From an uncultured Gemmatimonadales bacterium (GTDB taxonomy: Bacteria > Gemmatimonadota > Gemmatimonadetes > Longimicrobiales > RSA9): DNA of 64,000 nt. The translations under genes were made by a program, and so were the position numbers. Location: contig CAWAMW010000002.1 in NCBI GenBank assembly GCA_963783305.1, positions 576,001 through 640,000 of the forward strand, given 5' to 3'. Below are positions 39,624 through 48,953 of this stretch, in pieces; positions within the stretch are counted from its first letter, which is position 1; each line of letters begins with the position of its first letter. Below the pieces are notes generated by a model, which worked only from the letters and a program-made list of their open reading frames with translations, was not told where the DNA came from and did not search any database.

Positions 39624-39920
39624 CTAATCCACTTCTTCCACCGCCCGCCGCAGCCTCGGCCAGATCCAGCGCGCGTATCGGAGGAAGTTCGCCCTGTGCT
39701 CCGGCCGTGTGGCCAGAAAGGACCACGCCGCCCGCCCCGCCTTCTCCGCGTTGCACGCCCGGCAGCAGGCCACGAGGTTGCCGGTGGAATGGTCCCCGCC
39801 CTTCACTCTCGGCTGTACGTGGTCCACCGTGAGCTCCGCGATCTCGAACTGCTCCCCGCAGTAGACGCAACGGTTATCGTGCATCTCGAGGATCCGCCGT
39901 TTGCGCTTCGGGTTCGCCAT
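39624..39920 (-). CDS. HNH endonuclease
   Basis: CVYCG...TVDHVQPRVKGG...NLVACCRACNAEK. Confidence 0.9.
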   Translation of the reverse strand: MANPKRKRRILEMHDNRCVYCGEQFEIAELTVDHVQPRVKGGDHSTGNLVACCRACNAEKAGRAAWSFLATRPEHRANFLRYARWIWPRLRRAVEEVD

Positions 39921-43459: not shown

Positions 43460-44605
43460 CTAGTCCTCGTCCCCTTCCTCGATCCCCGCCGCCTTCAGCA
43501 GCTTCATCCGGATCTGTCGGTTGAACGTGTCCCACTTCAGCCGCATGTGATCCGGGTCCTGCGTTCCCTCCAGGAACCCGACCGGGATCTCGAAGCCGCC
43601 CGCGCGGTCGCGGCCCCCGCCGTAGTACCGGCCGCGGAAATCGCTCCCGAGCGAGCTCTTGAGGAACTGGTCGATATCCATGGTGACCTTGCTCGTCCGC
43701 ACACTGCCCACCACCAGCTCCCGCTCCCCCTCGCCCTGCACGATGCCGTAGACGATGGCCGTGTGGACGTTCTCCTCGGTGATGAGGAAGTCGGCCGCCT
43801 GCGGGACCGCGTCGCGGTCCGCGTGCCGCAGATAGCCCACCCCGGCGAGACTGAAGCCGCCCTTCACGAGCCGGTCCGAGAGCGCCGTCTCGATTACGTC
43901 CATGGTCCCGTGCGAACGCTGCACCCGCATGATCCGCTCGAGCAGCTCCGGGTCGAGTAGCCGACTGAGGTAGCTGGCCGCCAGCAGCTCGTCCGCGCCC
44001 GCCCGCACCAGCCCGTTCGTCTCCGTACGGAGCCCGTGCACCAGCGCGGTCGCCAGATTCACATGCGCCTGGTTGTCCGGGTCCAGCTCGAGCGTGTGCC
44101 CGCTCCGGAGGTAGTCCGTGAGGATCGTCGCGGCGGCCCCCACCGGACGGACATCGGTGAACTGCGGCTCCAGCACACCCTGCGGCGCGTGGTGATCGAT
44201 CACCGCCAACGCCGGAACGCCGTGCTCGCTCAGCCGGTCCGTGAGTCGGGTCGTCGTGCCCTGGTTGTCAATGAAGATGGCCCCATCGTACCGGTCCAGC
44301 GGGAGCGCCTCGGTGAATCGGATCAGGTTGATGGACAGGATATGGACCAGCGCCAGGTTCTCCTGGTGGCTGATCCGACCCTCGTAGACGATGTCCACCT
44401 CGATGCCATGCTCCGCCGCCAGCGTCCGGTACGCCATCGCCGACGAGATGGCGTCCGGGTCCGGGAAGTCCTGCACCGCCACGATGTGCACCTCGCCCCT
44501 GTGGCTCTCCAGGAACGCGGCGAACGCCCCCGCCCGCCGATCGTCTCCGAAGTGCGGCGCGAGGTCGAGCATGCTGCGTGTCGGTGTGTCCGTGGCTGAT
44601 ATCAT
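43460..44605 (-). CDS. DHH family phosphoesterase (NrnA-like)
   Basis: DPDAISS, IDHH, GSVRT, GGGRDRAGG. Start chosen downstream of the sigma-54 site. Confidence 0.88.
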   Translation of the reverse strand: MISATDTPTRSMLDLAPHFGDDRRAGAFAAFLESHRGEVHIVAVQDFPDPDAISSAMAYRTLAAEHGIEVDIVYEGRISHQENLALVHILSINLIRFTEALPLDRYDGAIFIDNQGTTTRLTDRLSEHGVPALAVIDHHAPQGVLEPQFTDVRPVGAAATILTDYLRSGHTLELDPDNQAHVNLATALVHGLRTETNGLVRAGADELLAASYLSRLLDPELLERIMRVQRSHGTMDVIETALSDRLVKGGFSLAGVGYLRHADRDAVPQAADFLITEENVHTAIVYGIVQGEGERELVVGSVRTSKVTMDIDQFLKSSLGSDFRGRYYGGGRDRAGGFEIPVGFLEGTQDPDHMRLKWDTFNRQIRMKLLKAAGIEEGDED

Positions 44606-44636
44606 GGTCCCTGCTACCCGGTTCGGTGGGATGGGT

Positions 44637-44652
44637 TGCGAAGGCCGTGCCA
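44637..44652 (-). promoter_or_regulatory. Candidate sigma-54 promoter of the DHH gene
   Basis: Minus strand TGGCACGGCCTTCGCA, about 30 nt upstream of ATG 44605. Confidence 0.65.
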
Positions 44653-44818
44653 TGGCACCGCTCGGAAGTACGCCTGAGGCGTGCTGTTCGGCCGGTCGGG
44701 CTTCGCTGTCCCTGGTGGGGGGCGGGTATGACGGGGTTGAACATCCCGCGCGGGGTAACGACCTCGCGGTCGGGGGCCCGGAGGGGCGGTCAGGGGGCCG
44801 CGGCCGCGTGACGTGGTC

Positions 44819-45246
44819 GCTTCCATGGGACGGGGGTCGGAGGTCCGGCGCGACCGCTCGATGCTCAGGAAGCGCCCCCGCGCAACGCTTCAGTGAGGCC
44901 GAGGCTCTGAGGCCGCCAGCCACGGCTCGTATATGACGGGAACCCCCGACAGCTCGGAGGTTCACGACGCCGAGGCTCGAAGGCCCACGCGTTGCTCACG
45001 GCCCTCGACGCGTGGGGGATAAGGCACGCCAATCGACGCGAGGCCCCCATCCGTCGCTCTCCGCCTCCGACGCGTGTGGGGTTGACGCTGCGCTTCGGCG
45101 GAAACGACATCGAGCCGTCCGACGGCGGGCGCATCCCGCTGCTTCAATGAGGTCGGAGCCCGAAGGCCCCGGAGACGCCGAGGAAATCATCCGGAAGCGG
45201 AAGCTTCACCCGCTACAATGACGCCGGGGCCCGGGGCCCGGAGGAC
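44819..45246 (-). CRISPR. Degenerate orphan CRISPR-like array (at least 5 repeats)
   Basis: Repeat-like units begin at 44819, 44887, 44959, 45141 and 45212, with 32-35 nt unique spacers between adjacent pairs. Best copy 45141-45176, reverse complement GTCTCCGGGGCCTTCGGGCTCCGACCTCATTGAAGC. Confidence 0.7.
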
Positions 45247-45322
45247 GCCGCCCTCCGGCAACCTCCGGGGCGCTGTACGCGGGGGAACGCGGGCGGGCGG
45301 GCCGCGGGGGCTGATCGGAGGT

Positions 45323-45426
45323 CCGTCCGCGGCGGATGATCCGCGGCTGTCCGTGGACGCGGTTCCGGGGCTGTCCGCGGCGGGGGGAGGGTGTCTGTCC
45401 GCGGAGGACGCAGATCCGCCTGTCGG
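45323..45426. repeat. Degenerate 24-bp tandem repeat
   Basis: C(T/C)GTCCG at 45323, 45347, 45371 and 45395, plus CTGTCGG at 45420. Confidence 0.65.
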
Positions 45427-45573
45427 CAGGGGCACGACCCGGCCCGTGGCCGACCGGCCGTCCCACCCCGCCATGGCCGTGCCCCGGCTGACCGGCCACT
45501 CTCCGTGCGGTAACCGGGCGGAACAACCTGCCTGGCCCCGGAGACGGGAAAGCCGATCGGGAGCAGGGAGGCC

Positions 45574-46497
45574 ATGGAACATCATTTGGAACAACGGATC
45601 TTTGCGCTGGCGCAGCGACAGCTTGGTGTGGTGTCGCGACAGCAACTCCTGGCCCTTGGTCTCCGACCTGGGGTGGTTCGGCGGCGCGTCGCTTCGGGAG
45701 CGTATCGTCGGCTCCACCGCGGGGTCTACCTCCTGGGTCCCATCGAACACACGTATTCCCGGGAAATGGCGGCGGTCCTCGCCTGTGGTCCTGATGCCGT
45801 GGCGAGCCACCGCAATGGCGCGTGGTTGTGGGACCTGGTCCCTTCACCGGCGACAGGGAGCGCGGTGGACATCTCCGTCGACGGACGCCACAATACCGAC
45901 CGCCCCGGCATCCGGGTGCGACGGAGGCGGCACCTCCATCCCTCGGAACGCACTGTCCACCACGGTGTTCCCGTCACCGCCCCCGGCCGGACGCTCCTGG
46001 ACCTGGCAACGGTCGCCGGTCCGGATGAGCTCGAGCGTGCGGTTGCCCGGGCCGAGCGCGAGCGACTCGTCGGGGCACGCGAGCTTTCGCGGATGATCAC
46101 GCGGTACCCGCGCAGAGCGGGCGTCCCTGCTCTTCGCGCCATCGTCGAACGGGCCGGCGGCCCGGCGTTGACACGGTCCGAAGCCGAGGCCCGTTTCCTC
46201 GCGCTCGTCCGGCGCGCCAGACTGGCCGCGCCGGAAGCCAATGTCCGGATCGCCGGCCGCGAGATCGACTTCTTCTGGCGCGCTGAGCGGGTGGCGGTGG
46301 AGGTGGACGGGTACCGGTATCACGGCACACGGGTTCGTTTCGAAGGCGACCATCGGCGCGGCGCACACCTCGCGGCTCACGGGATCCACGTCATCCCCGT
46401 CACCTGGCGTCAGATCGTCGAAGACGAGGTGGGAACCGCCGCCGACCTGGCCCGCGCCCTCGCGCACGCGCAGGTCGCCCGGGGGCACGGGGCCTGA
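45574..46497 (+). CDS. AbiEi-like N-terminal domain plus DUF559/Vsr-like PD-(D/E)XK nuclease domain protein
   Basis: ALAQRQLGVVSRQQL...RLHRGVY, ASHRNGAWLW, PVTAPGRTLLDLA, TRSEAE, EIDFFW...VAVEVDGYRYH. Confidence 0.87.
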   Translation: MEHHLEQRIFALAQRQLGVVSRQQLLALGLRPGVVRRRVASGAYRRLHRGVYLLGPIEHTYSREMAAVLACGPDAVASHRNGAWLWDLVPSPATGSAVDISVDGRHNTDRPGIRVRRRRHLHPSERTVHHGVPVTAPGRTLLDLATVAGPDELERAVARAERERLVGARELSRMITRYPRRAGVPALRAIVERAGGPALTRSEAEARFLALVRRARLAAPEANVRIAGREIDFFWRAERVAVEVDGYRYHGTRVRFEGDHRRGAHLAAHGIHVIPVTWRQIVEDEVGTAADLARALAHAQVARGHGA

Positions 46498-46605
46498 GAG
46501 GGCACCGTCAGGCGGTGGGGTCTTGCGGGTCGTAGGCCGCCCTGCCCGATGGCCCGCCTCCTACTCGCCGGCCGGGTGTTGAGTCCATACCCCGCCTGGG
46601 GCTCC

Positions 46606-46708
46606 ACTCGCCGAGGGGCGCGAAGCCGACGCCCGGACTCGCCGAGGGGCGCGAAGCCAGACGCCCGGACTCGCCGAGGGGCGCGAAGCCCGACGCCCGG
46701 ACTCGCCG
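46606..46708. repeat. 31/32-bp tandem repeat, about 3.3 copies
   Basis: ACTCGCCGAGGGGCGCGAAGCC(-/A/C)GACGCCCGG at 46606, 46637 and 46669, partial at 46701. Confidence 0.92.
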
Positions 46709-46720
46709 CTCCGGGTGACG

Positions 46721-46898
46721 CCCCCGACCCGCGGAACGTAAGGGCTCCAGGCGACGCAACCCCCCACGGTCCCGGCCTCTCCCCCGTCGGGTGGGGTGTA
46801 AACGGCTCCAGGCGACGCAAACTCCTCAGAGGCCCGGGCTCTCCCCCGACCCGTGGGGCGTACGGGCTTCAGGGCGACGCATACTCCCCGCGGGCCCG
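46721..46898. repeat. Imperfect ~61-bp tandem repeat, 3 copies
   Basis: CCCCCG...GTA...GGCT(C/T)CAGG(G)CGACGCA...CCCG units at about 46721, 46781 and 46843. Confidence 0.8.
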
Positions 46899-46964
46899 CC
46901 GGCCCGCCGACGCGTGAGCATCTCGGGCCCGGGGAGGTGCCGCGCCGCGACCCAACAGCGAGCG

Positions 46965-48953
46965 TCAGCGAGCGTTCCCGCCGTGCCCGACGTCCGGCCG
47001 CTCCTCGTCGGCCGGCTGCTCGACCGGTGTGCCCATGATCTCGCGCAGCTCCTCGCGGGTGACGACCTCGTTTTCGAGGAGGGCCTCGGCGACGCGCTCG
47101 ATGAGGTCGCGATCGGCGGTGAGGATCTGGCGGGTGCGCTCCCGCGACTCGCTCACCATCCGGCGAACCTCTTCATCGATGGTGCGGGCGGTGTCTTCGC
47201 TGTAGCTCCGCTGCTGGGGCCAGCCCCCCTCGCCGTTGCCGAGGAAGGTCTGCCGCTGCTTCTCGTAACCCACGGCGCCCAGCGCATCGGACATGCCGTA
47301 CTGCCGCACCATGTTGCGAGCCAGCTCACCCACTCGCTCCAGGTCATTGCTGGCGCCCGTGGAGATCTCTTCGAAGACGATCTCTTCGGCCACGCGGCCG
47401 CCGAGCAGAACGGCCATACGGTCCAGCAGCTCCTGCCGCTGGAGCAGGTAGCGCTCGTCCTCCGGGAGCTGCTGTGTGTAGCCCAGCGCGCCCACGCCAC
47501 GGGGGATGATGCTGATCTTGTGAACGGGATCGGCGTGGTCCACACGCTCGGCGACGATGGCGTGGCCGGCCTCGTGGTACGCCACGATCCGGCGCTCCTT
47601 CTCGTTCACCAGCCGGTTCTTCTTCTCGAGGCCGGCGACCACGCGGTCGATGGCGGCGTCCAGGTCCACCATGGCCACTTCGGTCTTGTCCTTCCGCGCG
47701 GCCAGCAGCGCTCCCTCGTTGAGCAGGTTGGCCAGGTCGGCGCCCACGAAGCCGGGTGTGCGGCGGGCGAGGACGTCGAGGTCCACGTCCCGGGCGAGCT
47801 TGATGTTCTTGGCGTGGACCCGGAGGATCGCTTCCCGACCCTTCCGGTCCGGGCGGTCCACGACCACCTGGCGGTCGAAGCGGCCGGGGCGAAGCAGCGC
47901 CGGGTCGAGGATCTCGGGGCGGTTGGTGGCGGCCATGATGATGACGCCCGTCTGCGGATCGAAGCCGTCCATCTCCACCAGCAGCTGATTGAGCGTCTGC
48001 TCCCGCTCGTCGTTGCCGCCCATGGGGCCGCCAGCCCCGCGCGCCTTGCCGAGCGCATCCAGCTCATCGATGAAGACGATGCAGGGGGCGTTGGCCTTCG
48101 CCTGCTCGAACAGGTCCCGCACCCGCGACGCGCCCACGCCCACGAACATCTCCACGAACTCCGAGCCGTTCATGGAGAAGAAGGTCACGCCCGCCTCGCC
48201 CGCCACGGCCCGGGCCAGCAGCGTCTTGCCGGTGCCGGGCGCCCCCGCCAGCATGACACCCTTGGGGATCCGGGCGCCCACGCGGTGGAACTTCTCCGGC
48301 TCCTGGAGGAACTCCACGATCTCCACCAGCTCCTGCTTCGCCTCGTCGGCGCCGGCGACATCGTCGAAATCGACGCCGGTCCCTTCCTCCCCCACGATCT
48401 TCGCGCGGTTCTTCCCAACCTTCATCACGCCCGACGCGGGGTTCATCCGGCGCAGCATCCAGACCCAGAAGAGGACCATGAGCCCCAGCGGCAGGAGCCA
48501 GAACAGGGCCTGGCCGAGCCAGCTCTCCCGGGCCGCCTCGATGACCACGTCGTGCTCTTCGAGCAGCGGAACGAGATCCTCGTCGCCCTCCACCCGCACC
48601 GTGGACCACGCGTCCGGCACATCCTCACGCCCCTCGGCCCAGCTGCTGTCCGGAGTCGCGGTGATGGACTGGCCGCGGAACTGGACCCGCTCGACCTGGC
48701 CCGCCTCCGCCCGCTTCTTCAGCTCCGTGTACGAGATCTGCTCGGTCTCGGGGCCGCCGAGCAGGACGTTCAGGCCGATCAGGAGCAGGAACGCCAACAG
48801 GAAGTAGAAAATGGAGAAGCGGGTGCGACGGCTGTTCATGCCGCGCCGCCGGTCGGATTTGCCACCGCGACGGTCCGGCCCGCCCGGGCGTCCCCGGTCC
48901 TTGTCCCGGCGGTCGTTCGGCCCGTTTCTCCGGTCCCTTCTGGAAGGTGTCAT
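46965..48953 (-). CDS. ftsH: ATP-dependent zinc metalloprotease FtsH
   Basis: Two TMs, [27 protein letters not shown]. Start is 48953 or 48839. Confidence 0.96.

Follow-up and report, generated by a model that had tools for sequence, protein, structure and literature searches.

Two stacked, degenerate type I-G CRISPR array-and-leader units between a DHH-family gene and ftsH, a probable relic of a lost CRISPR-Cas locus in an uncultured Gemmatimonadales bacterium

The 2.3-kb stretch between the start of a DHH-family gene and the end of ftsH, both on the minus strand, holds five mutually different repeats in a genome where no type I-G cas genes are found. The question is whether these repeats are a CRISPR array and, if so, whether they still have a function. 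An earlier, sequence-only reading proposed a hidden, highly diverged CRISPR-like array, either a decaying relic or a mini-array repurposed to make regulatory guides for a Cas complex encoded elsewhere. The first of these two possibilities is supported and the second is not. As judged by sequence comparison, the locus is most likely the inactive scar of a lost I-G CRISPR-Cas system at the DHH-ftsH site and comprises two tandem decayed units of array plus leader. The source genome (G000) is a 4.35-Mb assembly in 17 contigs, 96% complete, and the window, the whole 64,000 nt analysed, is G000:C2:576001-640000. The features of the region are collected in Table 1. Elsewhere in the window, a small stand-alone HNH endonuclease gene (98 aa) is found at 39624-39920.

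Table 1. Features between and including the flanking host genes, with positions in the window
Feature	Positions	Strand	Basis
DHH-family gene, left host flank	43460-44605	-	adjoins ftsH in 27/30 family loci
R1, degenerate I-G repeat, leader-distal end of array A, hairpin lost	44819-44854	-	26/36 to Nitratireductor repeat
S1, spacer, 32 nt	44855-44886	-	between R1 and R2
R2, degenerate I-G repeat	44887-44923	-	28/36; CRISPR-DR16 E 0.2; repeat-HMM rank 2 in genome
S2, spacer, 34-35 nt	44924-44958	-	between R2 and R3
R3, degenerate, leader-proximal repeat of array A, ends approximate	44959-44994	-	28/36 with gaps
L1, decayed full-length I-G leader of array A, far end abuts R4	44995-45140	-	alignment with G005 leader
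R4, best-kept, leader-distal repeat of array B; 7-bp stem, UUCG loop	45141-45176	-	33/36 to Nitratireductor repeat
S4, spacer, 35 nt	45177-45211	-	between R4 and R5
R5, degenerate, leader-proximal repeat of array B	45212-45246	-	30/36; CRISPR-DR16 E 0.059
L2, repeat-proximal ~60 nt of second I-G leader	45247-45306	-	leader comparison
AbiEi-antitoxin-like/DUF559 gene	45574-46497	+	Pfam AbiEi_4 and DUF559
ftsH, right host flank, start codon approximate	46965-48950	-	annotation and family locus comparison

All five repeat sequences reported earlier are present at the positions given for them. The start-to-start distances are 68, 72, 182 and 71 nt, and the adjacent units R1-R2, R2-R3 and R4-R5 are accordingly spaced at the 68-72 nt described before. 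The computed fold of R4 on the minus strand has the 7-bp stem and UUCG loop that had been claimed for the best copy, and its 8-nt handle is intact; R1 folds at -5.1 kcal/mol, worse than shuffles. Comparison with Rfam gave matches to the family CRISPR-DR16 for R4 (E 2.2e-4, 28.9 bits), R5 and R2, all three under the gathering score of 35 bits. The independent reference repeat was that of an intact Nitratireductor I-G array (L191), in which 58 of 59 copies are identical, and the identities to it in Table 1 come from gapped alignment. This array lies beside cas2, cas4/1 and csb2, and the match of R4 to its repeat supports the resemblance to type I-G noted earlier; the other four copies reach 26-30 of 36 identities. 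R4 is also identical to the repeat of a member of the same genus, G005, at 32 of 36 positions. The 36-nt hairpin repeat with an 8-nt handle is the form known from I-G, where Csb2 is described as cutting the repeat 4 nt past the hairpin and leaving that handle (PMC9638904).

The similarity of the repeats is beyond chance. A scan of 8.7 million positions of the source genome, with one indel allowed and a cut-off score of 23, found 154 positions with a score of at least 23. All five pairs in the genome with a spacing of 64-80 nt fall in this locus, against 0.046 expected by chance; they represent three distinct pairs and two off-register echoes. Similarity no better than that of shuffled sequence had been named as grounds for discarding the array, and the only array-spaced pairs of the genome are those found here. 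By themselves R1 and R3 (score 23) would be too weak; it is their spacing that qualifies them. A repeat HMM trained on ten other arrays placed R4 first and R2 second in the genome, if only with E 0.058 and 0.11. The five repeats are real. No two copies are identical, as had been observed, unlike the near-identical repeats of an active system, and a simple exact-word array finder run on the source genome gave five tandem repeats and no CRISPR-like arrays. A contig of run X1 spans 44825-45162 with no differences, and no X1 contig lies over 45171-45337; this agreement is not independent because X1 may be the source sample.

The irregular gap at 44995-45140 of the sequence-only reading is not a plain gap; it is a decayed leader that had been overlooked. 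Intact arrays of the family have a leader of about 170 nt, with three recurring motifs, that separates cas2 from the repeat read last on this strand. The 146 nt of L1 contain the three recurring leader motifs in order, and end-to-end alignment with the G005 leader gave 102 identities in 135 aligned columns, with 48 gap positions. The score of this alignment was equalled by none of 10,000 random genome segments and by one of 1,000 shuffles, and that of the distal half of L1 alone by none of 3,000 random segments. Joint comparison with the 18 non-G005 leaders was not significant, 280 of 1,000 random segments being as good, and a leader HMM from ten other leaders missed L1 in the source genome. 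The evidence for L1 is therefore specific homology to the G005 leader. The top genome match of the HMM, C2:665119, falls within a coding gene and was discounted as a chance match. Because the gap is a leader, the part at 45106-45140, formerly listed as a spacer, is not a spacer; it is the far end of L1.

The mean score of L2 against the 18 leaders was equalled by none of 1,000 random genome segments and, in a separate leader test in which seven segments were tested, its score was equalled by 2 of 3,000. L2 resembles the leaders of G043, G045, G042 and one G063 locus (none of 500 random segments as good in each case) and is unlike L1, since 620 of 3,000 random segments score as well. The leader expected beside the first repeat of an I-G array is thus found here in the form of two remnants. 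On the minus strand the layout, as read from these alignments, is (R1 S1 R2 S2 R3 L1)(R4 S4 R5 L2), two stacked array-plus-leader units. L1 and L2 are dissimilar and therefore not recent tandem copies; with spacers that are also unlike, a recent tandem duplication of one unit was rejected.

The proposed search of the genome for I-G cas genes found none in the 96%-complete assembly, including the csb2, cas7/csb1, cas8g and cas3 of an active I-G system. Family searches of the source genome for Cas1, Cas2, Cas3 HD, Csb1, RAMP and two Cas7 families were empty. These searches covered the named families, and positive controls worked in all but one, for which the matches in 13 of 73 family genomes serve. 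With tblastn, six I-G proteins of G043 gave nothing in the source genome at E 0.1, and 33 Cas ORFs from nine further loci gave nothing at E 0.001; PADLOC confirmed that the query proteins are of type I-G. One ORF without a Cas label, from the cas region of G019, matches the source genome over 54 residues (E 1e-6). A relaxed tblastn search for Cas remnants in 44601-47000 returned noise, the best among the matches listed having E 0.013 over 17 residues. Neither cas1 nor csb1 was found in any of the six genus genomes. A cas operon can be present but unassembled, and the fact that cas loci are sometimes missing from assemblies such as this one, with 17 contigs and 96% completeness, counts against the relic explanation.

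The number of differences per copy does not vary significantly across the five (chi-square p 0.29), and the 3 differences of R4 versus 6-10 in the others are borderline (Fisher p 0.063). Among the 40 stem pairings of the five copies, 13 are broken and 27 still pair, with one double change. Covariation in the stems is at shuffle level (124 of 500), and no copy folds clearly better than its own shuffles, the best z being -1.25 (R4). The repeats have decayed without compensation. No sigma-70 promoter or terminator was found at the locus.

The three spacers are dissimilar to one another and have the unique sequences and the length of about 32-38 nt that characterize I-G. The comparison with phages, plasmids and the host that had been suggested for them gave no target above chance. 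Against phage and plasmid records nothing was better than E 0.2, and parts of 20-23 nt of S1, S2 and S4 (20 nt for S1, 23 nt for S4) had no exact matches in viral contigs, an exact search being one that would miss decayed spacers. S1 has no match in the host genome above shuffles. The best host match of S4 has 26 of 35 positions, with a shuffle best of 23-24. A 25/35 match of S4, in a gene that is presumably lepA as judged from its translation, is at shuffle level and was rejected as a target. A search of the window from 42 to 50 kb for seed matches with the TTN PAM described for type I-G targeting (PMC9638904) gave none above shuffles, and the G043 mini-array, intended as a control, likewise gave none. 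None of the spacers is conserved across the 72 family genomes compared, the closest of which belong to other species. Searches at the DNA level in 41 and in 73 genomes gave repeat matches and scattered short spacer matches, and no conserved repeat-spacer unit.

These results bear on the proposal that R5-S4-R4 is a regulatory crRNA-like mini-array (of the CreA, scaRNA or crlRNA kind), guiding an I-G Cascade, unassembled or visiting, to a promoter that it would repress through partial pairing. Such elements share with this locus a short run of mismatched repeats and one two-repeat unit (PMC10120712, PMC9458426), and R4 has kept its stem and its 8-nt handle. According to PMC10120712, 4% of I-G loci have mini-arrays; regulatory mini-arrays are located within cas loci or close to them, frequently target a promoter, combine an intact upstream with a degraded downstream repeat and are thought to lack an acquisition leader. 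The locus differs in each of the respects that can be compared: no cognate effector genes were found in the source genome, the upstream R5 (30/36) is more damaged than R4 (33/36), the opposite of the published pattern, the leader remnant L2 precedes R5, and S4 is not conserved. A regulatory role of this kind is therefore very unlikely. The family genomes G042 and G043 do have a conserved two-repeat element upstream of cas3, which speaks for the existence of such elements in the family. This degenerate I-G mini-array (L077:11430-11540 in G043:C104; L031 in G042, C328:470-578) has a nearly conserved spacer and lies about 100 nt upstream of cas3, with a complete I-G operon behind it in G043. Its spacer matches the DNA just upstream of the cas3 start at 16 of 35 positions ungapped, and this spacer did not pass the seed test. 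The element looks like a regulatory crRNA-like one and, as a candidate for a functional I-G crlRNA, is stronger than the locus in the source genome.

The same site was examined in 30 of the 47 DHH loci of the family. In 27 of these the match to ftsH ends 15-211 nt from the DHH start, that is, the site is empty; the exceptions are the source genome, G005 and one contig that ends too soon. From the DHH side, the order in G005 is DHH, one other gene, a single and near-perfect repeat, a leader, part of cas2, a nucleotidyltransferase gene and the end of csb2. Residues 46-96 of cas2 are joined, in frame, to a piece of a frameshifted HEPN gene (a call from weak Pfam matches, E 0.02-0.04), and residues 490-524 of csb2 are at the contig edge. 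The nucleotidyltransferase and HEPN genes form a toxin-antitoxin-like pair between csb2 and the half cas2, in a locus (L024:1-1129, G005:C391) where the array is one repeat. The ftsH of G005 is on a different contig, followed by a SEC-C gene, and the link on the ftsH side is thus not established. With the same DHH-side position and a leader homologous to L1, G005 is read as carrying an I-G locus at an earlier stage of decay. A sister relation of G000 and G005 is not resolved by the DHH tree, and one shared insertion is accordingly proposed from position and leader homology. In the genus members G003 (L187) and G001 (L188) the DHH gene is absent at the site and a V4R-domain gene directly follows ftsH.

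Just upstream of the DHH gene, at 44636-44652 (minus), is a sigma-54-like -24/-12 motif, 31 nt before the start codon. It is identical in nine genomes, the source genome among them, whose DHH genes are the closest, and similarity to relatives stops just past it. Because this motif is conserved, the DHH gene is likely to be transcribed from a promoter of its own.

A pattern scan of GTDB for the repeat gave six loci, with long arrays in Nitratireductor and a Paracoccaceae genome beside cas2 and cas4/1 (in L191 also csb2) and single matches in the family members G022 and G005. The pattern had no matches in metagenome contigs or in viral contigs. Among the leftovers elsewhere in the family, G022 has two repeats and a cas2 fragment beside gene debris (L025:2446-2700, G022:C23), near a gene that is presumed from its sequence to carry a SEC-C motif, as does the gene beside ftsH in G005, and G068 has one repeat and a weak leader trace beside gene debris (L085:6856-7700, G068:C96). 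The 13 metagenome DHH loci are distant or incomplete, with one weak repeat-HMM match (L129, E 0.13).

The likeness of L1 to the G005 leader and of L2 to those of G043, G045, G042 and G063, with L1 unlike L2, and the changes that R2 and R3 share and that are missing from R4 and R5, would fit a history in which old repeats served as a recombination landing site and a further I-G locus, represented by array B and L2, was taken up next to the first relic and then lost. This idea has been proposed for V-A remnants in Francisella (PMC10120712). However, a single original locus whose cas operon had arrays at both ends would look the same after one deletion, decay does not differ significantly between the units, and no re-captured intact locus was found at the site among the 30 family loci. 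Capture of a second locus is improbable on this evidence. The wider notion of the ftsH-DHH junction as a CRISPR landing site that can be used again, the stacked fossils recording successive gain and loss of CRISPR immunity, is likewise improbable. If true, it would give a concrete case of scars guiding the re-acquisition of CRISPR-Cas, as PMC10120712 proposes for the V-A remnants.

The AbiEi/DUF559 gene fills the place expected for the cas genes and is probably an unrelated insertion. The source genome has four further full-length paralogues, with 41-49% identity, none of them near a repeat-HMM or repeat-scan match. Short tandem repeats with units of 24 nt, ~32 nt and ~62 nt flank the gene (window 45320-45405, 46605-46710 and 46720-46900), and unrelated tandem repeats also flank several of the paralogues. 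At G000:C7:253035 an AbiEi-family gene with a probable partner gene lies directly after the apparent 3' end of a structural RNA gene, a position that suggests an integrated island. It could be supposed that the repeats arrived with the AbiEi/DUF559 gene on a mobile element, acting now or earlier as RNA anti-CRISPRs (Racr solitary repeats) or as a viral mini-array. In favour, the 2.3 kb are inserted as a whole when compared with 27 of 30 loci, and R4 is a single repeat that is almost perfect. Against this, the phage and plasmid searches and the scan of viral contigs were negative as given above, the paralogues are without such repeats, and the leaders, together with the cas fragments in G005, point to a chromosomal cas locus. 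Phage or plasmid carriage, typical of Racr and viral arrays, is not seen; the locus lies between two core chromosomal genes. Arrival in this way is exceedingly unlikely.

An inactive scar rather than a regulatory RNA is most likely, because no cas genes were detected and a relative has broken cas genes at the same site. In this explanation an I-G CRISPR-Cas locus would once have been inserted between DHH and ftsH, and deletions would then have taken out most spacers together with the cas operon and left the far end of L1 next to array B. With Csb2 no longer processing RNA and Cas4/1-Cas2 no longer renewing the array, the repeats and leaders would drift; a leader-end repeat is not recopied in the absence of Cas4/1-Cas2. 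The AbiEi/DUF559 gene likely arrived separately. Without Csb2 and Cascade a guide would be neither made nor used, and the element would now do nothing. The leader and cas fragments of G005 suggest an intermediate stage of decay, which supports the relic. The near-intact R4, which could be explained by selection or by later arrival, counts against it.

The intact I-G arrays, those of Thioalkalivibrio sulfidiphilus as described in PMC9638904 and L191-L194, have in common with this locus the 36-nt repeat with a 7-8-bp hairpin and 8-nt handle, unique spacers of 32-35 nt and the same leader motifs. They differ in that here there are only five copies with 3-10 differences each, the leaders are decayed, and csb2, cas7/csb1, cas8g, cas3, cas4/1 and cas2 were not found in the genome. 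The closest precedent, described in PMC10120712, is the degenerate repeat left after loss of a V-A locus in Francisella hispaniensis, where degenerate repeats likewise occupy the syntenic site of a relative's present or former cas locus; the present case differs in being type I-G, with two array-plus-leader units head to tail and leaders that are still recognisable. In the literature searched, which took in few subscription papers and excluded supplements, no item combined type I-G with CRISPR and Gemmatimonadota, and stacked I-G array-leader relics were not found described.

The locus is an ordinary CRISPR fossil, and its mildly unusual trait is the two stacked array-leader units. Leader homology can in this way reveal how an array is laid out even when its decay puts it beyond standard finders. 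The erosion of I-G loci in the family is illustrated by a recent stage in G005, an older stage here and the one- and two-repeat leftovers in G068 and G022. As a relic the locus has little consequence; it shows that the lineage once had type I-G immunity.
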